Shown here one piece after another: positions 2,427 through 58,765 of a DNA stretch of 64,000 nucleotides. The stretch comes from Candidatus Levyibacteriota bacterium. Its GTDB lineage: Bacteria; Patescibacteriota; Microgenomatia; Levybacterales; UBA12049. Each line of letters begins with the position of its first letter. Positions within the stretch are counted from its first letter, which is position 1. Location: contig JBBSGK010000004.1 in the NCBI GenBank assembly GCA_038254115.1, positions 4,227-68,226 on the forward strand, written 5' to 3'. The notes under the pieces were generated by a model, which saw nothing but the letters and a program-made list of their open reading frames with translations, did not search any database and was not told where the DNA came from. Position numbers and translations under genes: made by a program.

Positions 2427-5318
2427 TTATGGTGCAACTTCTCTTGAGATTGTTTCATCCCGCATCAGAAAAGTTGGGGCATTAAGTATAAAATCAAGTC
2501 TCGGACTGATTGTGAGAGATGGGGTATTTGAGTTAGCGCCGCAAAGACTGCGGTTATTTATTAGCTTTCCATTCCCACCATTACCGGCAGCATTCATGAT
2601 AATTGATCCTTCTACATTTAACATTTTATCAGGAGCCGGGCAATTGTTTTTTCCCTCAAGAACAAAATTCTTATCAGTACTGTAAAATCCTTGTAATTGG
2701 CCTGCGGGTTTGGGCAAAGAGTTGCTTGCGGCGCCTACCGATTTATCGATAACGATGTTCCCGCTTGATGAAAATAGAGCAGTCGAGCCGTTTGGAATTG
2801 TAATGTCGCCTTTAACCGTTAACTTTCCATTGATTAGGAATATATAATTTTGGGATACGGTTGTAGGATTAAAGCTTGTAATAGTTACATCGCTATTGGG
2901 CGGGGCAACATAAATTCCATGGGATAAGTTGCTTGGAAGAGCGCAGTTGGAAATGCCACCGCTGCAAACTGATGCAAGATCAATTGTGGTTAATTGTGCC
3001 CCGGATATCTTGTCGGTCAAACTCCCATAACTTGTATGCAAGCGGCCGGTAGATGAGAAGAATTCAGGATACGATGATCCTCCTACGACCCAATTTTTAC
3101 CGGATGACTGACCCGGGGAAAAATCCGGATTTCCATCTCCTGAAAAAATGACTCCAGGGGTTGATCCGATAGCGCTGTCACTCTCTGAGGCAGATGCGCC
3201 TGAGGGAACATTGTCCACAAATCCGCTATCAATCCGAAGGTCAAGATTATAGCCCTGTATCCAAGCAGTGGAGTTATTGAGGGCAAAATTGAGATTTATT
3301 ATATTTCCTGATGCATCACAACTGCCTCCGGTTGTTGGATTGGGAATAGGATTAACGCATCCCGAGCCGGCAGTTACAGAGAATGCTGCTGGTCCGTAAG
3401 GATATACATGGTAATTAGGCGGAACAGTATTGTACGTTATTGTGTAGGTCCCGGAAGGAACATTTGTAAAGGAATAACTGCCATCCGCGTTATTGGCTAC
3501 TGTTATTCCAGCGCTTGGAGAGATACTTATATTTGGTGGTGTTGCAGTATAGTTTAATTCGCCACGGTTACTCTGATTGTCTCCATTTGTATCAATAAAA
3601 ACCTTTCCGGAGATGCTGAAGAAAGCCGTATTTACAGTAGCTGTATTTACAGTAAATGACAGATTGTCGGTACTAGCATTGCAATTTGCGTCACCCGAAT
3701 AGTCTGCTGTAATTGTATGGGTTCCGGTAGTTAAGGATGAGGTAGAGATGTTTGCTGTTTGCGCGGCAAGAGCTACGGGATTACCCATTGATATGCCCCC
3801 GTCATTGAATTGAATTGTGCCTGTCGGAACACAGGCACCGCTTCCTGCAACTGAAGCTGAAAAAGTAACTGATGTTCCTGAATTAGATGGGCTTACCGGG
3901 GAAGAGGTAAGAGTGGTAGTGGTTGCTGCTAATGAACCTGTTGTAGGTGTTGCGGTTGGAGGAGTAGTTGGAACCGTGGTTGGGGTAGGTGTTGCGGTTG
4001 GAGGAGTAGTTGGAACCGTGGTTGGGGTAGGTGTTGGTGGTTGTATTTGTGGAACTGAGCAGCCTGCTCCTCCGCGTCCTCCGGCACCGCCTGTGTTACC
4101 TGAGGGCGGTTGGCCGGCTTGTCCTGCATGTAATCCGTTACAGCCAGAACCTCCAGCTCCTCCGACACGGCCAGGTCCAACTTTATCATTGTAAATATCG
4201 CCATAACCCCCGGCTCCATAACCGGCAATTGGTCCGGCGGGCGAGGCAGTCCCAGTGGCACCGGTGCCTCCTTGACCTCCATCTCCTCCCTTGCCTCCGT
4301 CGCCACCGGCTGTAGTTCCAAGTCCATTTCCGCCATTGCCACCTAACCCTCCTATACCTCCCTTACCATTGAAGCTCTCAGCAATACTAAACGCTCCGTA
4401 TCCTGCAATTGGACCTGTAAATTTTGCGTCTCCATGGGCATTGTTTCCTCCTCTTCCTCCGTTGCCTCCATTTCCACCATTTCCTCCAGATTGGATCCCG
4501 TTTGAGTCACCTCCATTGCCTCCATCGCCTCCAAAGCCCCCCTCTCCATTATATAAAATTCCAAAACTACCTGCCCCATATCCGACTCCTCCAGGGGATG
4601 AGGCAGTTCCGTGGGCTCCCGTGCCTCCTTGACCTCCATCTCCTCCCTTGCCGCCATTCCGTCCTAATTTTCCATTATTTCCATTCCCTCCCCATCCTCC
4701 GGCACCGTTATATACTTGAGCAAAACTTGAAGCACCATAACCGACAGGTGTTACGGATTTAGCATCGCCCGAAGCATTATCCCCACCACGTCCACCAACT
4801 CCTCCATCTCCACCTGCGCTAATTGCGGTTGCATTTCCTCCCTTGCCTCCATTTCCACCCTTACCGTTGTATACCTGAGTCGAGAAAGCTGAACTGCTAC
4901 TTTTGGCATTACCGGAAGCATAATTACCTCCAGTTCCTCCGCTTCCTCCTGGCCCGGCAACACCATTGCTTGTTATATTATCGCCTCCATTTCCGCCTTT
5001 TCCTCCGAGGCCGTTATATACAGTTGTGAGGGTTGTGGCATCACTTTTAGCATTGGCGACTCCGCCTCCTCCTCCGCCCCCACCGGCGCCGAGTGCTTGG
5101 TTGAGAGTTAATAATCCACTTCCACCATTTCCTCCATTTGCTGCCCCTCCTGCTCCCCCTCCTAAGCCTTGAGAATTATTGCAACCTTTTTGTCCTGGTG
5201 CGCCGGAAGCGCCACCTGTACCACAGCCAACTTGGGCAGATAAGGTGGGTACGAGTATAAGAAAAGTGAAGATAAACAGCGTGAGAATAGAGTTATTGAG
5301 GAATGGTTTTCTTGCCAT
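2427..5318 (-). CDS. glycine-rich repeat cell-surface protein (signal peptide, Gly-rich repeats, Pro/Thr linker, Ig-like/Cna-B-like domains, C-terminal domain)
   Basis: 963 aa. The signal peptide is MARKPFLNNSILTLFIFTFLILVPTLSAQ. It is followed by about 390 aa of roughly 40-aa repeats of the form YNGxGGxGGxGG...DAKS. Then comes a PTPTTVPTTPPTAT x2 linker, then beta-sandwich-like segments such as GKVFIDTNGDNQ...SGTYTITY. The gene lies between rplA and rplJ. Confidence 0.85.
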   Translation of the reverse strand: MARKPFLNNSILTLFIFTFLILVPTLSAQVGCGTGGASGAPGQKGCNNSQGLGGGAGGAANGGNGGSGLLTLNQALGAGGGGGGGGVANAKSDATTLTTVYNGLGGKGGNGGDNITSNGVAGPGGSGGTGGNYASGNAKSSSSAFSTQVYNGKGGNGGKGGNATAISAGGDGGVGGRGGDNASGDAKSVTPVGYGASSFAQVYNGAGGWGGNGNNGKLGRNGGKGGDGGQGGTGAHGTASSPGGVGYGAGSFGILYNGEGGFGGDGGNGGDSNGIQSGGNGGNGGNGGRGGNNAHGDAKFTGPIAGYGAFSIAESFNGKGGIGGLGGNGGNGLGTTAGGDGGKGGDGGQGGTGATGTASPAGPIAGYGAGGYGDIYNDKVGPGRVGGAGGSGCNGLHAGQAGQPPSGNTGGAGGRGGAGCSVPQIQPPTPTPTTVPTTPPTATPTPTTVPTTPPTATPTTGSLAATTTTLTSSPVSPSNSGTSVTFSASVAGSGACVPTGTIQFNDGGISMGNPVALAAQTANISTSSLTTGTHTITADYSGDANCNASTDNLSFTVNTATVNTAFFSISGKVFIDTNGDNQSNRGELNYTATPPNISISPSAGITVANNADGSYSFTNVPSGTYTITYNTVPPNYHVYPYGPAAFSVTAGSGCVNPIPNPTTGGSCDASGNIINLNFALNNSTAWIQGYNLDLRIDSGFVDNVPSGASASESDSAIGSTPGVIFSGDGNPDFSPGQSSGKNWVVGGSSYPEFFSSTGRLHTSYGSLTDKISGAQLTTIDLASVCSGGISNCALPSNLSHGIYVAPPNSDVTITSFNPTTVSQNYIFLINGKLTVKGDITIPNGSTALFSSSGNIVIDKSVGAASNSLPKPAGQLQGFYSTDKNFVLEGKNNCPAPDKMLNVEGSIIMNAAGNGGNGKLINNRSLCGANSNTPSLTISPRLDFILNAPTFLMRDETISREVAP
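3947..4040. repeat. 42-bp tandem repeat (2.3 copies) inside the Gly-rich protein gene, encoding the PT-rich linker
   Basis: GTGTTGCGGTTGGAGGAGTAGTTGGAACCGTGGTTGGGGTAG occurs at 3947-3988 and again at 3989-4030, followed by a partial third copy. Confidence 0.8.
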
Positions 5319-10135: not shown

Positions 10136-10503
10136 GCTTGATCTATTTTTCTAATTCTAACTTTACCATGGTTGGTTAAAGTCCAGGATCTTATACTAAC
10201 AAGGCTTGGTCCATCGGGATCAATTGATGCAATATGGGTTCGTGCATAGCCCCATTTAGTTAGGGTTGACAATGTCTCAAATACACGAGGTTTAAAAGTA
10301 GGGGTAGAATGTGTATCTACAAGTTCGTCAAAGTGGTGTGAAGCAGAGTCTCCTGCCTGACGGTTTAATAACCGCAAACAATCAGCTTCAAACGGACTTA
10401 ATATTTTGGGTACTCTCCGCCTTTTTCCATTCTGCCACTCGTTAATCATCTGGCGTTTTTCTTGTCCTTCCGATTTTTCTCTTTCTACCATAGCGAGCCG
10501 CAT
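10132..10503 (-). CDS. hypothetical protein (Arg-rich)
   Basis: 123-aa ORF, convergent with and overlapping the galU stop. No confident family. Confidence 0.5.
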   Translation of the reverse strand: MRLAMVEREKSEGQEKRQMINEWQNGKRRRVPKILSPFEADCLRLLNRQAGDSASHHFDELVDTHSTPTFKPRVFETLSTLTKWGYARTHIASIDPDGPSLVSIRSWTLTNHGKVRIRKIDQA

Positions 10504-10530
10504 TATAGCATTTATTAATCACATTGGCAT

Positions 10531-10927
10531 TTTTATTTGCACTTTTTGCAGAAAAAGTGCCCAAAACTGCCGCCGGGTCTAGCTCCAGCTTTTTGAAATC
10601 TCACTCGTTCCCTAAAAGAGCCAGTCTTCGCTGCGCTTGCTTTTCCTCTTTTCCTGCCTGCCGGCAGACGTTCACTCATTCATTTCTCATGCAGTCGCTC
10701 GAATCGGCGGATACTATTTAGGCCTACCGTAATTCGGCAATTCGAGCATGCGTTAAAGAAATATGACTAATGAGCGTTAAGAAAACTGAAAAGTGAAGTG
10801 AAACTGAACGTAGTTTTTAGCGAAGAGGAAATATTTCTAGCACGCGCAGACCTGCCGACGCTTTTCGTTCTTTGTGCGCACAAAGAATAATAGAAAAGAA
10901 ATATTGCTGCAAAAAGTGCAATAAAAA
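10531..10927. mobile_element. MITE-like non-coding element of about 397 bp with 21-bp terminal inverted repeats
   Basis: The left end TTTTATTTGCACTTTTTGCAG (10531-10551) and the reverse complement of the right end CTGCAAAAAGTGCAATAAAAA (10907-10927) match at 19 of 21 positions. The interior carries no consistent ORF. A roughly 150-bp internal segment (10566-10716) recurs at 30866-31010. Confidence 0.5.
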
Positions 10928-10977
10928 ACATTATATTTACACAAAGAACAGATGAGAGAATTTGCTATACTAGTTAA

Positions 10978-11628
10978 ATGCCCAGGAAGTATTTGTTGAT
11001 TTTATCAGGAACTATATTATTTTTCATCTTTATCCTTTTCTCATATCTGGTGCACAAGAATCATTTTACTGCAACAGACTTTAATACAACTGTACGTATC
11101 CAAGACCGGATGCCGAGAAGGTTTGATAATATTTTTTCAACATTCAGTGATATCGGAAAAGTTGAAGTGATGTCTATCATTTTGTTAATAGTTTTGATCA
11201 TCTCAAGAAAAATTATCCGAGGTTTGATTGCTGTTGGATTGTACGTCGGATTTCATCTGATTGAGATTTACGGGAAGTTTTTTGTTTCTCATCCGCCGCC
11301 GCCGCAATTTATGCTCAGGACCAAACATATTATTGATTTTCCCCAGTTTCATGTGCGACTTGAAAATTCTTATCCGTCGGGACATGCGGGGAGGACACTT
11401 TTCCTATCAACGATTTTGATAATATTAATATATAACAGCAAAAAATTTTCTAAGGCGCTAAAAATAGGCTTGATCGGTTTAATAGTTTGTTTTGATATCA
11501 CTATGCTGGTTTCGCGCGTGTATCTGGGAGAGCACTGGACATCTGACGTGATAGGAGGAGCGGTACTGGGAGCAGGTTTGGGATTGGTAAGCGGGGGAGC
11601 GCTTACAAAAGCTTGGTTAGAAAGATGA
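10978..11628 (+). CDS. PAP2-family phosphatase (phosphatidic acid / undecaprenyl-PP phosphatase-like)
   Basis: PAP2 motifs PSGH (SYPSGHAGRTLF) and SRxxxxxHxxxD (SRVYLGEHWTSDVIGG); polytopic membrane protein. Confidence 0.8.
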   Translation: MPRKYLLILSGTILFFIFILFSYLVHKNHFTATDFNTTVRIQDRMPRRFDNIFSTFSDIGKVEVMSIILLIVLIISRKIIRGLIAVGLYVGFHLIEIYGKFFVSHPPPPQFMLRTKHIIDFPQFHVRLENSYPSGHAGRTLFLSTILIILIYNSKKFSKALKIGLIGLIVCFDITMLVSRVYLGEHWTSDVIGGAVLGAGLGLVSGGALTKAWLER

Positions 11629-17788: not shown

Positions 17789-19387
17789 TTATTCCCATCT
17801 CATCGTTGCGGGGGGTTTGGAAGTGATGTCATAAACAACTCTTGAAACATCAGGGACCTCATTTACAATTCTTGATGATATTTGCGCGAGCACATCATAG
17901 GGGATACGGCTCCAATCAGCCGTCATAACATCCTCAGAATCATACGAGCGCACAGCTAGGACTTCTGCATAAACACGGGCGTCTCCTTTGACCGCGGTTG
18001 AAAAGCTTCCTGTCATTACTGCAAAGCATTCAAATACTTTGCTGTATTGGTCTGCTTTTTTCATCTCTTCAACCACTATTTGATCTGCTTTCATGACTTG
18101 TGCAAGCCTTTTTTCTGTGACCTCACCCATTATATTTACCGCATGTCCGGGACCGGGCCAAGGCTGCTGCATTACTATTTCCTCAGGAAGTCCTGAGAGG
18201 CGCCCGATTTCGCGTACTTCATCTTTATAATAAGTCCGGTTGGGTTCGATAAGTTTTAATTTCAAACTCTGAGGAAGTCCTCCGACATTGTGATGGGATT
18301 TGATGTGGGATGCATGCTTAGACCCTTTGGATTCTATAACATCTGAGTAAATTGTTCCCTGCCCGAGGAACTCTGCATCCTTATGCTTTTCTGCAATTTC
18401 CTGGAAGATATCTATATAAAGACTTCCGATTATTTTTCTCTTTTGTTCCGGATCTGTTATTCCTTTTAGCTTGTTTAGGAAACGTGTACGTGCATCAACG
18501 ATCACCAAATTTGCATGTATCAAATCTTTAAAAATGTAACTGACAAGCTGATCTGTGCCGACTCTCATAAGACCTGATTCGACATAGACCGGGATAAGAT
18601 TTGGGCCGATTGCTTTTCCTATCAGAAAAGCTGCAACAGTTGAGTCGACACCTCCTGAAACAGCAGCGATGACTTTACTTGTCCCAACTGTCTTTTTAAT
18701 GTCCGCTATTATTTTTTGCGGATCAAGAGAGAGGGGAACAAGATCCTCTTTACAGATCTTTGCAAAGTTTCTCAAAATTTCCAAACCATAATCTGTGTGC
18801 TGCGCTTCAGGATGAAACTGCACGCCATATAGATTTTTATCTGTGTTTTGGACAGCTGAAAATTCAACTGTTTTGGTGACAGCGAGATTTTCAAAACCCG
18901 GGGGAAGTTTTGTTACAGTGTCGCCATGTGAAACAATAACACTTGAAGTTTGGGGAAATCCATTAAGGATGCTTAATTCTTGATTATTAAGTCTTAATTC
19001 TAACTTTTCAGGTCCGTATTCTTTGGTCGTCTCCTCCACCTTTGCGCCCAATACCTGAGCCATTAATTGCCAGCCGTAACAAATGCCAAGAATTGGTGTT
19101 CCTTGCTCAAAAATCTCTTTTGAAATTGTTGGCGCGCCTTTTTCATAAACAGATGAAGGTCCGCCGGAAAGGATAATTCCCTTGATAGTATCACGGGTAC
19201 CACGTGTAGCACGAGTACCACGAGCTTTTTTCGTTTCTTTCCCGTGATACCCGTGGTACTTTTGATACTCGTGATACTTTTGGAGTGTTTCCTCGGGGTT
19301 TACGTATTCTATTTGGACTCCTATTTGCCGGAGGCGTCTCCCTATGAGGTGAGCAGTTTGTGAGCCAAAGTCAACGATGAGGATCAT
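17789..19387 (-). CDS. guaA: GMP synthase (glutamine-hydrolysing) with an approximately 35-aa low-complexity insert in the amidotransferase domain
   Basis: N-terminal GATase (IVDFGSQ...ILSGGPSS...GICYGWQ), ATP-pyrophosphatase SGGVDS motif, and a C-terminal dimerisation domain. The extra segment YHEYQKYHGYHGKETKKARGTRATRGTRDTIKG is not in canonical GuaA. Confidence 0.93.
   Translation of the reverse strand: MILIVDFGSQTAHLIGRRLRQIGVQIEYVNPEETLQKYHEYQKYHGYHGKETKKARGTRATRGTRDTIKGIILSGGPSSVYEKGAPTISKEIFEQGTPILGICYGWQLMAQVLGAKVEETTKEYGPEKLELRLNNQELSILNGFPQTSSVIVSHGDTVTKLPPGFENLAVTKTVEFSAVQNTDKNLYGVQFHPEAQHTDYGLEILRNFAKICKEDLVPLSLDPQKIIADIKKTVGTSKVIAAVSGGVDSTVAAFLIGKAIGPNLIPVYVESGLMRVGTDQLVSYIFKDLIHANLVIVDARTRFLNKLKGITDPEQKRKIIGSLYIDIFQEIAEKHKDAEFLGQGTIYSDVIESKGSKHASHIKSHHNVGGLPQSLKLKLIEPNRTYYKDEVREIGRLSGLPEEIVMQQPWPGPGHAVNIMGEVTEKRLAQVMKADQIVVEEMKKADQYSKVFECFAVMTGSFSTAVKGDARVYAEVLAVRSYDSEDVMTADWSRIPYDVLAQISSRIVNEVPDVSRVVYDITSKPPATMRWE
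19186..19292. repeat. array of 7 octamer repeats GTAYCACG in both orientations (palindromic), in frame inside guaA
   Basis: Forward copies gtatcacg, ggtaccacg, tgtagcacg, agtaccacg, then inverted copies cgtgatac, ccgtggtac, tcgtgatac. It corresponds exactly to the extra 35 aa in GuaA. Confidence 0.6.
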
Positions 19388-19748: not shown

Positions 19749-20750
19749 ATGAGAACTGAACAGGAAGTAAGAAGAGGTTTGGGACAATATAAGAGAGGTC
19801 TAATAAGGGCAACCTGGGATAATCCTACTACTTTTGATCCTGAAGATGTGCGGCGTCATCTTAGAGCAAAAGGAGTACATAGCACATCACCAATTGTTGT
19901 AATTCCTTATGATATAGAGAGCTTGGATAGAGCCGCTGCAGTAGCTGACTCGTCTGAGTGGCAGGACCCGTTTGTTGTCGGTAAAATAAAGAGTGCTAAA
20001 AGCAAAAGGAAAAAGTTGGATAAAGGCGCCTCAATATATGATATCGGATTTCCCACTGTTTTTTATACAGAGTTGCTCGATTTAGCAGTTGTTATAGACG
20101 ATAGTAAAACAAACGAAGAGTTATTTGGAGAAATTTATTCTAGAGGTGCGTTAATTGAATCATTTGCTCATGAACTTACTCACAGCGCGTTTGCGCCTTT
20201 AACCGTTGTGAGTTTTTCTCCTAAAAACGATTCAGACAAAGTACGGGTAAAATCAACCCATGGTATTGGTCAAGCTAGCGAAACAGTAACTCTAAGTCCA
20301 GGAGCTGGTACTGAAAACCTATATAAACCCGTCTGGATTGATGAAGCGCATGCTGTTAAGTTGGCATCAGAAGTGAGAGGCAACATGGTTCCGGAGTCAG
20401 TTCAGCAAAAGCCATGCGTGATGGAGGAGGAAGAATTTGGTATTGATGAGATAGAAATACCCCCCCCATACCTCATCTTTTCTGAGAGTTATCCGGATGA
20501 ACCGGGGGATGTAGGGGGAAGCGTTGCCGGGGTGGGATTGGATACTCTGGAGACCAAGCGACCTGGATTAATACGTGACATTAATAATCTTACGACAGGC
20601 GGATCTATAGTGGATTTTCACAATAGATTAAAGCATAGTGTTGGGAAAGTTCTTTACAAGGCTATTACAACACGTCAGCCATATAAATCATGGGGAAATG
20701 TTCTTGATCAAATCCTTGATCTTTCTCCATCTCCATCATCAAAGCGCTAA
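19749..20750 (+). CDS. hypothetical protein with an HExxH motif (possible metallopeptidase-like)
   Basis: 333 aa, Arg-rich, containing IESFAHELTHSAF. No confident family. Confidence 0.5.
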   Translation: MRTEQEVRRGLGQYKRGLIRATWDNPTTFDPEDVRRHLRAKGVHSTSPIVVIPYDIESLDRAAAVADSSEWQDPFVVGKIKSAKSKRKKLDKGASIYDIGFPTVFYTELLDLAVVIDDSKTNEELFGEIYSRGALIESFAHELTHSAFAPLTVVSFSPKNDSDKVRVKSTHGIGQASETVTLSPGAGTENLYKPVWIDEAHAVKLASEVRGNMVPESVQQKPCVMEEEEFGIDEIEIPPPYLIFSESYPDEPGDVGGSVAGVGLDTLETKRPGLIRDINNLTTGGSIVDFHNRLKHSVGKVLYKAITTRQPYKSWGNVLDQILDLSPSPSSKR

Positions 20751-26891: not shown

Positions 26892-27464
26892 ATGTTACAG
26901 ATTTTGGGAATAGGGTCGGGAGTTATATGTTTTTTCGGTTACGTTCCGTATCTAAGGGATATTTTTCGGGGGACTACTAAGCCTGAGCGTGCTTCATGGT
27001 TTATATGGCTGGTACTTGGGATTATTGGATTTTTTTCCCAAAGAGCCGAAGGCGCGACTTGGTCACTCTGGCTATCCGGAGTAAATAATATCGGGATACT
27101 TGTTATTGTTATTTTATCAATTAAATATGGGGTTGGAGGTATGCGCAAGAGAGATGTACTGGCATTGGCTGCCGCGGCAGTGGGACTATATCTCTGGTAT
27201 TTAACGCGTCATGCTTACATCGCACTATACATAACTCTTTTTATAGATGCTTTGGGCTACATCCTGATCTACATGAAGTCATATTCTGATCCGGGAAGCG
27301 AAACACTAATCGCCTGGGTGATTTATTCCTTGGCGGGTCTTGCCGCAGCGTTGTCAATCGGCACATTCAATCCCGTTTTGCTTTCATACCCTGTGTACGT
27401 CTTCGTGGTCAATATGATAGTTGTATTGATTCTTCTTTCAAGAAAACAAAAAATCACCAAATAA
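26892..27464 (+). CDS. polytopic membrane protein, hypothetical
   Basis: 190 aa with about five predicted TM helices. Confidence 0.5.
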   Translation: MLQILGIGSGVICFFGYVPYLRDIFRGTTKPERASWFIWLVLGIIGFFSQRAEGATWSLWLSGVNNIGILVIVILSIKYGVGGMRKRDVLALAAAAVGLYLWYLTRHAYIALYITLFIDALGYILIYMKSYSDPGSETLIAWVIYSLAGLAAALSIGTFNPVLLSYPVYVFVVNMIVVLILLSRKQKITK

Positions 27465-29251: not shown

Positions 29252-30760
29252 CTATCCCAAACTTTTCCTGAGGATTGCAGCTTGAGTGATTAGGTCGGTA
29301 AGTGATCCGTCATCTGATTCCAATTTATCATAGATCTGATCTGTCAAGGTTTTGTGCTTGATTTCATCTTTTGTGACAGGTCCAAGTTTGATTCCAAGAG
29401 TTGTCTCAATTGCTCTTATGTCGTCCAATATTGGTTTCCAACCAGTGGACTTCTTACTCAATTTATTTAGATTATCAATGTTTAGATACCGTCCTGCCTG
29501 GTCCAGATCTTCTGAAATGTATTTGTAATATTTCTTGACGATATCAAGTTGTCCCATTTTTTTTGCGTTTTCCAGGCCGCGGCCTGTTCCTATCAGCTCA
29601 GGAGGAACGCCGATAGAATACAAAGCTGCGGTAAAACCGATCGCGCGTGGGAGTTTCACCTTTCCAACTCCACGCGAATATCCGAAAAGCCCGATGTGCT
29701 GGACCCGTTCACGCCGTCTTGGCAAAAATGCAGCTACCTTATTGATTAGTGGTGCAATTTTTTCAATTGTTTCGCGGTAGTTTTTCTCAAAACAAGGAAT
29801 CAAGCTTTGCAAAATATCTTCATCCTTTCCGGAAATTATCTCGGCCGTTTGCGTCGGAAGGGTGTCTTCAAGATATTTTATGGCTTTGATGACATCTTTT
29901 TTGTCAAAATCATACCTGAAAGCGCTTTGAATGGTAGTAGTGCGGATTCCTTTATATTCATCAGCAAATTTTTCAATGTTTGTCGGATCGATTCCCCCGC
30001 GGAAGGGAAGTACTGCTGCGCCGATTATCGGATAAAAAGGAATCCCAAGCTTTTCAGCTAATTTTCTGTATCTGGACAGGGCAATTTTAATTGCAAAGAC
30101 AGTCGGAACCATACCGAAATTAAGAGCAGGATCGGATCTAGCAACATAAGGGCGGATGTATGATGGTTTCTTCTTGAACTTATTTTCATAAAGACTTATG
30201 TATTTTTCAATTATTTTGTCAGAATTAATTATCGTTTCAACATCCTCAAATAGCGGGATAATCTTGGGATTGGTCAAAATATTTTCCAGACGGTACAGCG
30301 GATGAGTGAGCGAGTGGATCTGCTGATAGGCGACATGAATCTCAAAAATATCCTCAGCATTGGTGGTCATGGGAAGAATTACTTCAAATATCGGGGGAGT
30401 GGGGAGTCCAAAATGCTTGGCGACGCTTGCTGCGCTAGCTACGTTCATAAACGCGCGTCCTATTCTGAATTCTGTTTCGACTTTGGGATTGGGAAGTCTG
30501 AATGTCAAAAATGTTTCCTGCCCGAGAGGATTTTTTTGGAAAAATTCAAAATGCTCTCCAAACAATCTTTCAAGTACTGATTCATCAACCAATTTTCCTT
30601 CCCAGTCCCATTTGTATTCACGGATTCCAAGCTCTGAATATGCTAGAAATGTTTCGTGGGATTCAAAATTGGTCCTGATAAATTCACGGTCATGCCAAAA
30701 AGGCATGCTTGCGTGATCAGGGTGTTGAGTGGCCATAGTGGCTGAGATTTTTCTTTTCAT
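29252..30760 (-). CDS. archaeal-type phosphoenolpyruvate carboxylase (atPEPC)
   Basis: About 500 aa. The N-terminus ...TMATQHPDHASMPF...YKWDWEGKLVDE matches the conserved atPEPC start (TQHPD). Its size is typical of atPEPC, not the roughly 900-aa bacterial Ppc. Confidence 0.75.
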   Translation of the reverse strand: MKRKISATMATQHPDHASMPFWHDREFIRTNFESHETFLAYSELGIREYKWDWEGKLVDESVLERLFGEHFEFFQKNPLGQETFLTFRLPNPKVETEFRIGRAFMNVASAASVAKHFGLPTPPIFEVILPMTTNAEDIFEIHVAYQQIHSLTHPLYRLENILTNPKIIPLFEDVETIINSDKIIEKYISLYENKFKKKPSYIRPYVARSDPALNFGMVPTVFAIKIALSRYRKLAEKLGIPFYPIIGAAVLPFRGGIDPTNIEKFADEYKGIRTTTIQSAFRYDFDKKDVIKAIKYLEDTLPTQTAEIISGKDEDILQSLIPCFEKNYRETIEKIAPLINKVAAFLPRRRERVQHIGLFGYSRGVGKVKLPRAIGFTAALYSIGVPPELIGTGRGLENAKKMGQLDIVKKYYKYISEDLDQAGRYLNIDNLNKLSKKSTGWKPILDDIRAIETTLGIKLGPVTKDEIKHKTLTDQIYDKLESDDGSLTDLITQAAILRKSLG

Positions 30761-30865
30761 GGATAAGATGGATTATAGCAGATTTATTGTGTACTTTTGG
30801 CAGCAAATGTATGCAAAACTGTTTTTTTATATGTTCTTTGTGTGGACAAAGAACCAAAGCCACCG

Positions 30866-31010
30866 CCAAGTCTAGCTCCAGCTTTCGGAATAGCACTCGC
30901 TCATTAAAAGAGTCAGTCTTCGCTACGCTTGCTTTTCCTCTTTTTCTGCCTGGCGGCAGACATTTTTTCGCTTATTTCTCATGCAGTCGCTCGAATCGGC
31001 GGATAATGGT
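30866..31010. repeat. second, partial copy (about 85% identity over about 150 bp) of the MITE-like element interior
   Basis: GTCTAGCTCCAGCTTT...CAGTCTTCGCT(A/G)CGCTTGCTTTTCCTCTTTT...CTGCCTG(G/C)CGGCAGAC...TTTCTCATGCAGTCGCTCGAATCGGCGGATA is shared with 10566-10716. Both copies are in the same orientation. Overlapping ORFs differ in frame and content, so the segment is non-coding. Confidence 0.6.
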
Positions 31011-31155
31011 TTAATTCTTTGGAAATGTGAGCGTTCAAATAAAAAAATTATTTGTATTTTGCGATTGAAACAAATATATTTAGTGAACATTCAAGCAAAG
31101 CACGTTTTGTAAATTGTGAATGAGTGGCATGTGTAACCAGCTTTATAGCATTTGC

Positions 31156-40291: not shown

Positions 40292-41431
40292 ATGGCTGAA
40301 AGGATAAGAAAGGGAATGGAAAGGGTAAGGGGTTCGGAAGAATCACCCAAAAAAGAAAAGCCAACAGGAATTGGAACAGGTATTTACCGGCCAAGAAAAT
40401 TACTAACTACTTTTGAGCTTGGAAGACGAAGGATAATTCTTCCACATAGAGGCGAAGAACAACGAGATGATCGAAGGATGCCTAGGATACTTACAGCTGC
40501 TGATATAGAACGAAAAATTGGCGTTGAACAAAGACGCATAGCTGGTACAACTGAAACAGTCGCGTATATGGGTTACAAAGCTGGGGAGGAGGCGCTTGGG
40601 GAAGACCATAAGGTAGATCTGATCATAACATCTACGACTCACCCCACTTCTGAACATGTTTCGAAAGAGATCGCTAAATCGCTAAAGTTGCCGGAAGATA
40701 CCCCGGCAATTGATGTCCATGCGGCATGCTCGGGATCAGCGCTGGCTTTTGCTTATTTACATGAACATAGAGAGGAAATGCTAGGAAAGAGGATACTTGT
40801 TGTAGCATCTGAAAAAATTACTGATACTCTTGTTGATCTGAGGAATGGGGGAGCGGAACTTGATCCTTCGCTCGGACAAACCATTTTTAGTGACGGCGCT
40901 GCAGCAATCGCTTTTACTTTTGGAAAGGACATTAAAACCCATTTTGCGGGCAATGAATCTCTTCCTGATGCAAGAGGAAGAACAGATTTGATAAAAATGT
41001 CTGTTGGAGACAGCTCTTTTGTGGAGCCTTGCATTACTTATCCTGTTGCTCCTTCACCCAGTACTCCTGAATATCCAAAAGGTTTCTTCACACAGGAAGG
41101 CGGGGCGGTTTATGAAGGAGTTCAATCCGCTATACCCGACATAATACGAGATGCAGTAAAGGCATCCACGTGTAGGCCTGAAGAAATAGATCTTGTAGTC
41201 GCGCATTCCGGAAGTAAAAAAATGGTAGAGGCATTAAAGAGAAGATTAGGTGAGTATAAATTGCATGCATTATACAAAGAAGGTAACGTGTCTTCAGTAT
41301 CTATGCTTTATGCTTTGATAGATGCAATAGACGAAGGATTAATTGGGAAGGGAAGTAAAGTGGTCTTATCAGGATTTGGGGCCGGAAGTCCTGATCTTTT
41401 TTCCTCAACTGTTGTAGCAGAGCTTGGGTAA
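40292..41431 (+). CDS. 3-oxoacyl-ACP synthase III (FabH / KAS III)-like condensing enzyme
   Basis: Active-site Cys context VHAACSGSALAF, His/Asn region VVAHSGSKKM, C-terminal GFGAGS. It has a basic N-terminal extension, and the start could be one of the internal Met codons. Confidence 0.75.
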   Translation: MAERIRKGMERVRGSEESPKKEKPTGIGTGIYRPRKLLTTFELGRRRIILPHRGEEQRDDRRMPRILTAADIERKIGVEQRRIAGTTETVAYMGYKAGEEALGEDHKVDLIITSTTHPTSEHVSKEIAKSLKLPEDTPAIDVHAACSGSALAFAYLHEHREEMLGKRILVVASEKITDTLVDLRNGGAELDPSLGQTIFSDGAAAIAFTFGKDIKTHFAGNESLPDARGRTDLIKMSVGDSSFVEPCITYPVAPSPSTPEYPKGFFTQEGGAVYEGVQSAIPDIIRDAVKASTCRPEEIDLVVAHSGSKKMVEALKRRLGEYKLHALYKEGNVSSVSMLYALIDAIDEGLIGKGSKVVLSGFGAGSPDLFSSTVVAELG

Positions 41432-54049: not shown

Positions 54050-54805
54050 ATGCAGAAGAGGAAGAGTTTTTTCCCCACGTTTTTAATCTTTTTTATACTT
54101 TCTATATTTATTTTTCTCTTATCCCGCTTAGGATTTCTCAACGGATTGACAGGATTTTTGGAGAGGGCAACAGTACCTCTGCAACGTGTAATATTTGGAG
54201 CAACACATTCCGATAAATGGGGAGAGTCTGCAAAATTGAAGGATGAAAATAGTAAATTGGCCTCACAAATTGTAAAGCAATCAGAATTGAAGCGTGAAAA
54301 TCAGGCACTCCGTGATCAATTCCAGACTTCAAATCCGGCGCCCAGAATACTTTTACCGGCAAAAATTATAGGTAACAATGATGGCAGTCTAACAATTGAT
54401 AAGGGACGCGCGGACACTCTAAAAAAAGGTGATGTAGTAGTTATAAAAGACAATCTAATCGGCAAGGTGGAGAAAATTTCAGAACACCTCGCAACTGTAA
54501 GCCTTCTAACTTCAAACATAATCTTTACTGCAAAAACGGCCAAAACAGGATCAGTCGGAATACTGAAAGGCCAATCAAATGGCATGATACTTGATAATGT
54601 TCTGCTCAATGATCATCTTGAGAAAGACGATTTGGTCATAACAAAGGGGGATGAAGATTTATATGGAAGTGGATTTCCGCCTGATCTGGTTGTCGGGAAA
54701 ATTGTTTCGGTAAATAAAAAAGCAAGCAATCTTTTCCAAAGCGCTGAAGTTAGGAGCTTAATTGATTTTTCCAAACTCGAAACAGTATTCATAATTACGA
54801 AATAA
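54050..54805 (+). CDS. mreC: rod-shape-determining protein MreC
   Basis: N-terminal TM helix, coiled coil (ENSKLASQIVKQSELKRENQALRDQF), then beta-rich domains. It lies downstream of mreB. Confidence 0.85.
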   Translation: MQKRKSFFPTFLIFFILSIFIFLLSRLGFLNGLTGFLERATVPLQRVIFGATHSDKWGESAKLKDENSKLASQIVKQSELKRENQALRDQFQTSNPAPRILLPAKIIGNNDGSLTIDKGRADTLKKGDVVVIKDNLIGKVEKISEHLATVSLLTSNIIFTAKTAKTGSVGILKGQSNGMILDNVLLNDHLEKDDLVITKGDEDLYGSGFPPDLVVGKIVSVNKKASNLFQSAEVRSLIDFSKLETVFIITK

Positions 54806-58138: not shown

Positions 58139-58765
58139 TTGTATAATACCGCCATGGTATTAGCAGAAGTAGAAACAGAAGGCAAAGAACAAGATGGGTA
58201 TTTCAGAGTCCGCAGGTTTGTCGCCCGGGTGTCGGATCTGCATGAGCTTCAGGAACAAAGACTTGAAGGTATGAAGATGGAGCGAGGGGTCGGATCGCTT
58301 GATGGCCAGATCGCTATAGTTGAGGAGGATTTGCGTGACAGAGCTGAGCAGACTGAGGTGCAGGATTGGGCAGCCAGAAAGAAGGAGCAGTACGATGCCG
58401 AGTTTACTGGACTTGTGCGCCAAAAAGGGCGACGGGGACAAAGCCTCTCAGCATTAGATGAAGAGATTGAAGCTCTAAGAGGAAGTAAAGAGGTCTTAGC
58501 TCTACGTTGGTACTTAGAAAGTAGGCAGGGAGGGTCGAGAAAGAGGGGCCAAAAATCTCCATCAGCAAATGCGCAGAAACGAGTTGCTGCACTTGGTAGG
58601 GCTATTAAAGATGGAAATTATAGAACACCACAGGGGCATTTTGCAGTAGGGCGAGCAGCAACAGATATTGGAATAGGGCCAAATACTGCCAAAAGAGATT
58701 TTATGAGACTGCCAGCAGATCAAAGAGGGGGACTGACCCTTAGAACAGCCGCTCCTAGAAAATAA
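58139..58765 (+). CDS. hypothetical protein (Arg-rich)
   Basis: 208-aa ORF. Confidence 0.45.
   Translation: MYNTAMVLAEVETEGKEQDGYFRVRRFVARVSDLHELQEQRLEGMKMERGVGSLDGQIAIVEEDLRDRAEQTEVQDWAARKKEQYDAEFTGLVRQKGRRGQSLSALDEEIEALRGSKEVLALRWYLESRQGGSRKRGQKSPSANAQKRVAALGRAIKDGNYRTPQGHFAVGRAATDIGIGPNTAKRDFMRLPADQRGGLTLRTAAPRK

Follow-up and report, generated by a model that had tools for sequence, protein, structure and literature searches.

The DNA analysed here, hereafter the window, comprises 64,000 nucleotides of contig JBBSGK010000004.1 from Candidatus Levyibacteriota (40% GC), and its intergenic region at positions 10531-10927 and a related sequence some 20 kb away, upstream of ppc, are the subject of this study. 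Around 10531-10927 lie genes for an NTP transferase, a PAP2-family protein, a DUF4389 protein and a 123-aa protein without Pfam assignment. The ppc gene encodes an archaeal-type enzyme, the closest named homologues of which are found in Candidatus Daviesbacteria and Levybacteria of the Microgenomates, within the Candidate Phyla Radiation (CPR). A preliminary description had taken 10531-10927 for a single MITE (miniature inverted-repeat transposable element) of about 400 bp with terminal inverted repeats and a second, partial copy before ppc. We found instead that the region contains two divergent members of one element family, that its ends are copies of a separate palindrome, here called H2, and that a third member occupies 30851-31007.

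The repeated block itself was as previously described. Positions 10561-10713 and 30854-31005 are 84% identical over 153 nt in the same orientation (81.5% over 184 nt with the flanking hairpin region), both copies contain the hairpin CTGCC-N4-GGCAG with a changed loop, and no reading frame is shared between them on either strand. A covariance model was built from five copies of this type, designated type A, and used to search the window with all filters off. It detected exactly three members: A-type copy 1 on the minus strand at 10558-10715 (core 10561-10713; 167 bits, E=3e-38), with helices P1-P5 and three tandem G.A loops; A-type copy 2, also on the minus strand, at 30851-31007 (162.5 bits, E=4e-37), upstream of ppc in the gene sense; and a C-type member on the plus strand at 10729-10870 (core 10733-10866), which is matched over the full length of the model (48.7 bits, E=6e-10) and has the closing stem CGGCA/UGCCG. 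Because one and the same model matches the A-type element on the minus strand and the C-type element on the plus strand, 10531-10927 is not one transposon but two family members placed 5' to 5', 13-19 nt apart, each directed toward a flanking gene. The spacer between their 5' ends is 10716-10728 when measured between model hits and 10714-10732 from core to core, and comparable 5'-to-5' spacers of about 16-22 nt are found in two related loci (L092 and L142). The C-type member is 90% identical to L093 9800-9930, and a 5' fragment of a further module, type D, lies divergently from A-type copy 2 on the plus strand at 31083-31125 (86% identity to L092 7177-7218). No repetition of the complete 400-bp unit was found: there is no second full unit in the window, and what recurs are its modules, in varying combinations. 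Two open reading frames (ORFs), one of 54 hydrophobic residues running across the palindrome H1 described below (10767-10931, minus strand) and one of 35 residues in proteobacterial-like copies, were rejected as coding since neither frame nor start is conserved.

The inverted repeat noticed earlier is real. Of the 21 positions of 10531-10551 (TTTTATTTGCACTTTTTGCAG), 19 agree with the reverse complement of 10907-10927, and a repeat search extended the match to 25 nt (22 of 25 complementary, or 88%) with the arms 349 nt apart. Chance rarely produces inverted repeats of this quality with a separation of 50-1000 nt: they fall in 2 bins of the window, whereas 12 Markov shuffles gave 0.08 on average. 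The 15-mer TTGCACTTTTTGCAG occurs four times with up to two mismatches where 0.33 occurrences are expected. Of the hairpins proposed for both ends, the left one holds: positions 10539-10560 form the perfect palindrome H2 with 9-bp arms (GCACTTTTT-GCAG-AAAAAGTGC), which together with the T-rich flank 10531-10538 makes up the supposed left terminal repeat. The right one does not, as 10907-10927 (plus strand) contains only the 3' half of H2 (CTGCAAAAAGTGC) followed by an A-rich tail, with a hairpin of just 5 bp (ATTGC/GCAAT). The C-type element is followed by a different palindrome, H1 (GTTCTTTGTGCGCACAAAGAAT, 10867-10888), with the junction GACGCTTTTC before it. The inverted repeat is therefore made up of the H2 that follows the A-type element and of a half H2 that lies beyond the C-type element and its H1. 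A lone 3' half of H1 (CACAAAGAAC, plus strand) is also present at 10940-10949. Near ppc, an H1 variant (GTTCTTTGTGTGGACAAAGAAC, 30833-30854) sits between A-type copy 2 and a degenerate H2-like palindrome, H2' (TGTACTTTTGGCAGCAAATGTATGCA, 30790-30815), a piece that is also present in L091 and L123. No more than three H-type palindrome hairpins are present in the 64 kb of the window.

The same order of parts is kept in all types of the family: a T-rich junction, (C/T)(A/G)G(C/T)TTT or GCTTTTC, is followed by an AT-rich perfect palindrome. H2 follows the A-type copies in the window, L091 and L123, with variants in L091, L092 and L093, and it occurs singly after A-type copies in other genomes, whereas H1 (GTTCTTTGTGCGCACAAAGAAC) follows types B, C and D. 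Whichever strand is read, the H palindromes have U runs before them and A runs after them. A separate GC-rich perfect palindrome, CCTGCCTGCCGGCAGGCAGG, which in the window (10647-10664) is the P4 hairpin of an A-type copy, recurs alone at L145 5378-5399 and 19000-19019 and at L093 9528-9548.

The blocks share a predicted branched fold. RNAalifold placed 43 pairs on the five A-type copies, with standard pairs in 93.4% of cells, and 16 of the 43 pairs change on both sides, compared with 7.4 +/- 1.8 in shuffled and 1-2 in slid controls. The fold consists of a closing GC helix P1 (CCGCCG/CGGCGG in type A), a long irregular helix P2-P3 in which as many as three conserved tandem G.A loops alternate with 2-bp steps, the GC hairpin P4, and the hairpin P5 with a conserved, purine-rich loop; P1 is followed by 3 nt and then by U3-5. 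For P4, the window has CUGCC/GGCAG, L123 CCCGCC/GGCGGG and L142 CCCGC/GCGGG, and the closing stem covaries between types (CCGCCG/CGGCGG, CGGCA/UGCCG and CUUGC/GCAAG). In type D, which was left out of the family alignment, it is GUGAGC/GCUCAC. In an alignment of ten family members, 29 of the 43 pairs change on both sides as against 9 at most in slid controls, although this alignment was fitted to the model and leans to structure. Within type A, and between types A, B, C and E as well, the fold is preserved by compensatory substitutions.

Several features point to the strand on which this structure would act. In the three symmetric 2x2 loops, the dinucleotide is GA in 23 of 30 cases, and on the other strand these loops would read UC/UC; GA opposite GA is characteristic of tandem sheared G.A pairs, here on the gene-sense strand. 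The consensus fold is predicted at -40.1 kcal/mol in sense and -30.3 kcal/mol in antisense orientation, where the G.A helix is missing, and the nested inserts described below have GAAA tetraloops on the sense strand. The data favour a single-stranded structure under selection, read in the direction from block to palindrome to gene. RNA is the more likely molecule, because the predicted fold branches, conservation extends to non-canonical loops and to the sequences of loops, and three diverged genomes have kept an A-type element before ppc, its changes being compensated. The preliminary description had also allowed for a small RNA, and it is this alternative that the strong covariation among copies favours. 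No Rfam family accounts for the elements: Rfam 15 reported only tRNAs in the window at gathering scores and, at E<=10, nothing meaningful in 10400-11050, in L092, in L093 or in 20 loci containing H1.

We looked for relatives in loci around ppc homologues of 77-83% protein identity. Family members were found in other Microgenomates-like contigs, outside the window and always in intergenic positions. They fall into types A, B, C and E, which share the fold, and type D, which is joined to them by sequence motifs only. The A-type model matched over its full length type B in L091 and L092, type C in L107, L130, L093 and L124, and type E in L091, while five other syntenic loci, 95 kb in all, gave no match. 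In the gene sense, the region upstream of ppc contains type A in three genomes (the window, L091 and L142, the copies of which differ by compensated changes), type C in one (L093) and type D in two (L090 and L092). No block precedes ppc in L137, L144 or L145, and the L143 contig starts inside the palindrome, so that the region upstream of its ppc is not visible. Other members occupy unrelated sites: an A-type element lies at a different intergenic site in L123, coaBC has type B upstream of it in L091 and L092, and type E adjoins a DUF4342 gene in L093. The C-types of the window and of L093 are 90% identical even though they occupy non-orthologous sites, the L093 copy being before ppc, and the two ppc proteins share only 79% identity. 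The family is not limited to two copies lacking such terminal palindromes elsewhere, nor is the block part of a larger conserved gene in other genomes.

The elements are arranged as mosaics. All seven CPR loci examined have a divergent pair: the two of the window are A|C and A|D', L091 has E|A, L092 B|D, L093 E|C, L123 A|D and L142 D|A. In L107 and L130, single arms stand by themselves or in tandem, and a 5' fragment of one type lies just upstream of another in L091, L093, L107, L123 and L130. A short motif, CGGCAATTCGAGCATG, is found upstream of A-type copies in orientations that vary between genomes. No target-site duplication surrounds 10531-10927, the flanks of which (...CATTGGCA and CATTATAT...; …ACATTGGCA and CATTATATT…) contain no direct repeat, and none was found around the four C-type copies. 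In these four, conservation runs from TCGGCAATTCGAGC to the end of H1, the left flanks are TAAT, TACA, TATA and TTAT, and there is no constant tetra- or pentanucleotide target just 5' of the left end, such as IS200/IS605-derived palindrome elements (PATE) would have. A Logan contig of 20,086 bp from the same sample (SRR24807095) spans the stretch between both loci and ends within the elements, at window positions 10858 (C-type) and 30943 (A-type); such breaks inside the copies are expected if further near-identical copies are present in that sample. Nested within family members are hairpin-forming inserts of 19-60 nt, a part of them with GAAA loops, which share 94-100% identity from genome to genome (L090 9860-9920 and L123 3898-3957; L092 7049-7081, L093 9626-9658 and L091 2735-2788; L130 and L090, TTTACCCCGCTAAGCGGGG). 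They suggest a second, smaller layer of mobile or exchanged modules. Judging from the patchy distribution, the near-identical copies at non-orthologous sites, the nested inserts, the 5' fragments and the assembly breaks, the family appears to move or recombine between intergenic sites, and in this respect the earlier view of a repeated, dispersed and apparently mobile non-coding sequence was correct.

The genes next to the elements appear to be transcribed from promoters outside them. As noted earlier, the blocks lie near minus-strand gene starts, with 57 nt between block and ATG at 10503 and 94 nt between block and ATG at 30760 (ppc). An extended -10 box (TGCTATAAT) at 10502-10510 on the minus strand overlaps the annotated ATG at 10503, and the true start of this gene is likely the ATG at 10491, 10 nt downstream of the box. 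The same box precedes ppc in six relatives, and in the window it is found before ppc at 30772-30780 (minus strand). On the plus strand, the box TGCTATACT at 10963-10971 is followed after 7 nt by the leaderless PAP2-family gene (ATG 10978). All three window genes adjoining elements therefore have TGCTATAAT or TGCTATACT 7-11 nt before the ATG. Leaderless mRNAs appear to be the rule in the source organism, because most genes of the window have a TATAAT-like box that ends 6-8 nt before the ATG and lack a Shine-Dalgarno sequence (for example 17789-19387, 19749-20750, 26892-27464, 54050-54805 and 58154-58765). Several have a canonical TTGACA-N17-TATAAT promoter, and GGAGG is present in few (1289-1681, 1712-2260 and 40292-41431). 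With -10 boxes this close to the ATG, the blocks are upstream of the inferred transcription starts, and a riboswitch or 5' leader was rejected on this ground. The suggestion that the repeat is a mobile promoter did not hold either, since conservation of type C stops at the end of H1 and leaves the promoter outside the repeat.

The palindromes, in turn, either abut the extended -10 box of a leaderless gene or precede it by 13 to about 30 nt. The lone H1 half at 10940-10949 ends 13 nt before TGCTATACT of the PAP2 promoter and 16 nt before its -10 hexamer TATACT. The distance from the end of the palindrome to the -10 hexamer is exactly 13 nt at four loci, namely at coaBC in L091 and at ppc in L090, L093 and the window; in the window it is H2', in the gene sense, that has this spacing. 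Even genomes without a block there have a T-rich/A-rich hairpin before their ppc promoter. Between promoter and ppc, L142 (2610-2732) and L143/L145 have a leaderless ORF of about 40 aa (MTLL...) that overlaps the ppc start (ATGA); the window ppc has no such upstream ORF.

H1 extends beyond the family. Its 20-nt core was found at 37 loci in metagenome contigs, eight of which are CPR-like contigs with type C or A elements. The other 29 (among L100-L136; for example L102 323, L110 10049, L111 313, L128 398 and L135 6938) are on contigs of 30-67% GC with ordinary housekeeping neighbours, and their GC content and gene context suggest that they come from unrelated organisms. The 29 copies share a core of 45-60 nt, consisting of GGCGCCTTTCTTTGGTTCRT, the palindrome TTCTTTGTGCGCACAAAGAA and then ATGAAC, and the stem extension beyond the H1 core covaries between them. 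Here H1 comes directly after a GC hairpin and a U tract, and it is located either 3' of co-directional genes or RNAs (ilvH-like, ffh, tmRNA, hemH-like) or facing convergent genes; in L107/L130 it likewise adjoins the stop codon of a convergent gene. Single metagenomes contain several H1 copies with differing flanks and differing adjacent blocks of about 120-160 nt. Apart from the one tmRNA, the H1 loci showed no association with tRNAs, and the core had no match in plasmids or phages by BLAST, in viral contigs or in Rfam. Searches with other parts of the elements were negative. The most conserved 18-mer of the block gave 87 matches in species-representative genomes, all attributable to chance (24 nt or less, in high-GC genomes), and a 23-mer had none in a metagenome scan. 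Six patterns from the block, the C-type, H2 and H1 retrieved nothing related from viral contigs, where five loose matches were unrelated phage palindromes. Peptides from the antisense frames of the block matched nothing in the protein collection, and the literature on the palindrome sequence and on CPR repeats or RNA motifs yielded nothing relevant.

These data have to be weighed against readings in which DNA rather than RNA is the functional molecule. According to the first, the 400-bp region is a non-autonomous MITE with terminal inverted repeats of 21-25 bp, mobilized by a transposase encoded elsewhere, and the ppc copy is half an element. The inverted repeat is better than chance, copies are present at non-orthologous sites where assemblies break, and 5'-to-5' pairs with outward palindromes are also seen at L091, L092, L093, L123, L142 and the window ppc, so the composite architecture of about 400 bp does recur. 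However, the two arms of each composite are of different types in combinations that vary by genome, single arms exist alone or in tandem, and the supposed terminal repeat is a self-contained palindrome that is also found singly. Given in addition the missing target-site duplications, the absence of a transposase with these ends from every locus examined, and the covariation of P3-P5, which is not required of a DDE-type MITE, we consider this reading distinctly unlikely. Mobile palindromic DNA of another kind, namely selfish REP/REPIN/BIME-like or IS200/IS605-derived sequence with single-stranded hairpins that are read by an HUH enzyme of the RAYT/TnpA type and kept for mobilization, is unlikely as well. 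It would fit the mosaic of small and larger imperfect palindromes in intergenic DNA, the inverted doublets, the lack of target-site duplications, the nested inserts that are 100% identical between genomes, the multiple H1 copies with differing flanks in single metagenomes, and a strand asymmetry that is weak. Yet the branched fold with its conserved tandem G.A loops and loop sequences exceeds the known needs of HUH enzymes, no constant target tetranucleotide is found at the four C-type left flanks, and the two elements that make up a doublet lack mutual complementarity. The copy number is low, with three elements in 64 kb, the A-type element before ppc has persisted through speciation with compensated changes, and no Y1/HUH gene was found by Pfam among the immediate neighbours, the only genes scanned.

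Double-stranded DNA could also be what is recognized, if H1 and H2 were operators of a dimeric transcription factor or UP-like sequences at -35 of extended -10 promoters and the blocks an incidental duplicated spacer. The exact 13-nt distance between palindrome and -10 hexamer at four loci and the T-rich/A-rich hairpin at every ppc promoter of the clade, even without a block, speak for such a role, as does the stronger conservation of the palindromes than of the blocks: the window and L123 have exactly the same H2, whereas their A-type copies are only about 70% identical. This proposal leaves the covariation of the blocks unexplained and does not accommodate H1 at the stop codon of the convergent gene in L107/L130 or at gene 3' ends in other organisms. 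Neither is there a co-occurring regulator, the adjacent 123-aa protein having no homologue in any other locus examined and no co-occurrence with the elements, and we regard the proposal as improbable. That the inverted repeats are recombination sites for flipping the 350-bp segment between divergent genes is barely credible. Inverted repeats of 21-25 bp do flank about 350 bp between such genes, and CGGCAATTCGAGCATG stands upstream of type A in either orientation in different genomes, but both flanking promoters are outside the repeats, no recombinase was found among the neighbours, and the modules occur without a partner repeat.

The reading that we prefer, with a confidence that is about even, is that 10531-10927 contains two members and 30851-31007 one member of a new family of structured elements of about 140-160 nt that are probably transcribed, their dispersal and a role at RNA 3' ends being deduced from the comparisons above. 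The elements would act as single strands in the direction from block to palindrome to gene, most likely as RNA. In such an RNA, the P1 closing helix, the U tract and the palindrome may together set the 3' end just before the next promoter, so that the elements would not be mRNA leaders but either small structured RNAs or modules at transcript boundaries. Their spread and exchange between intergenic regions could proceed by duplication and by recombination at the shared 5' motif and 3' palindrome.

A number of observations weigh against this. No conserved promoter is found at a fixed distance upstream of the elements, and the best candidates would start inside P1; moreover, the divergent intergenic regions have no upstream gene whose transcript could be ended. 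For these two reasons, the function of the elements stays a matter of inference. What comes after the palindromes is a run of A instead of U, and they are thus not canonical terminators. Taken singly, the sequences show no remarkable stability (z of -0.31 in copy 1 and of -2.5 in copy 2), and the ratio of G.U to A.C favours the sense strand only weakly (8:5 and 13:7, and 12:6 in the H1 flanks). The sample is small, with five A-type copies and ten family members, the latter in an alignment fitted to the model. In addition, compensatory-looking changes of an imperfect palindrome can arise in DNA, either by templated quasi-palindrome mutation or by selection on single-stranded DNA hairpins as in REPINs.

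A more far-reaching proposal, which we find doubtful, is that the elements represent a new class of structured RNA, branched and with a three-loop G.A "zipper" and exchangeable domains, that propagates in CPR. Its 3' module, the T-rich junction and the invariant palindrome TTCTTTGTGCGCACAAAGAA, would then be shared with multi-copy elements of unrelated bacteria (30-67% GC) as a widespread and undescribed signal for RNA ends, processing or mobility that is read by a conserved factor.

Among known systems, the closest analogues are mosaic and stem-loop intergenic repeats such as BIME/REP, ERIC, Correia and EFAR. Like BIME/REP of enterobacteria, including the REPIN doublets, the family described here is intergenic, combines short palindromes with other motifs in variable order and orientation (H1, H2, CCTGCCTGCCGGCAGGCAGG and the blocks), forms inverted doublets, lacks target-site duplications and is positioned at gene boundaries. 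Unlike REP, which is a hairpin of 20-40 nt, its unit is a branched fold of about 150 nt with non-canonical loops; its doublets are of different, non-complementary types, its density is low, no RAYT gene is known for it, and its palindromes abut promoters of leaderless genes. With ERIC/YPAL, Correia (NEMIS) and EFAR, which are imperfect palindromes of 100-170 bp transcribed within mRNAs, it shares the size, the long imperfect closing helix, the size variants due to internal insertions at fixed sites, the intergenic location and possible effects on transcript ends. Those elements are lineage-specific simple hairpins derived from terminal inverted repeats, in the case of Correia with a TA duplication and an IHF site, whereas the present family has two internal hairpins, a covarying G.A-rich helix and a separate terminal palindrome. 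Multi-copy motifs of the Rfam type resemble it in the compensated consensus fold, the conserved unpaired nucleotides, GNRA loops (here in the inserts) and the U tract after the closing helix. It differs from them in that there is no Rfam 15 match, no promoter was found, whole domains are exchanged between types, and the elements form divergent pairs. With MITEs it has in common that it is short, non-coding, repeated and patchy and that inverted repeats end the 400-bp composite; the missing target-site duplication, the composite that is not copied as a whole, the ends formed by self-contained palindromes and the constrained interior set it apart.

The window has other repeats that are unrelated to the structured family. 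Direct repeats of 80-94% identity are present at 37945-38048/39000-39103 and at 13189-13257/14005-14073/14921-14954, the latter three marking the 3' ends of three tandem paralogous genes. An ORF of 964 aa (2427-5318, minus strand) has a 9-nt periodic repeat, rich in CCTCC on the plus strand, that gives a Gly-rich, collagen-like protein, and it contains a perfect tandem duplication of 42 nt at 3943-4026.

CPR (Patescibacteria) genomes are tiny and gene-dense, and non-coding elements are hardly known from them. A dispersed family that is supported by covariation and located at leaderless promoters would be among the first described for this group, and the covariance model with its 43 base pairs provides a tool for searching complete genomes and metatranscriptomes. 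The present case is also a warning for annotation, since two outward-facing elements, each capped by a palindrome, can mimic a MITE with terminal inverted repeats. If the sharing of H1 with unrelated bacteria is confirmed, it would raise the question of which conserved factor reads the palindrome.

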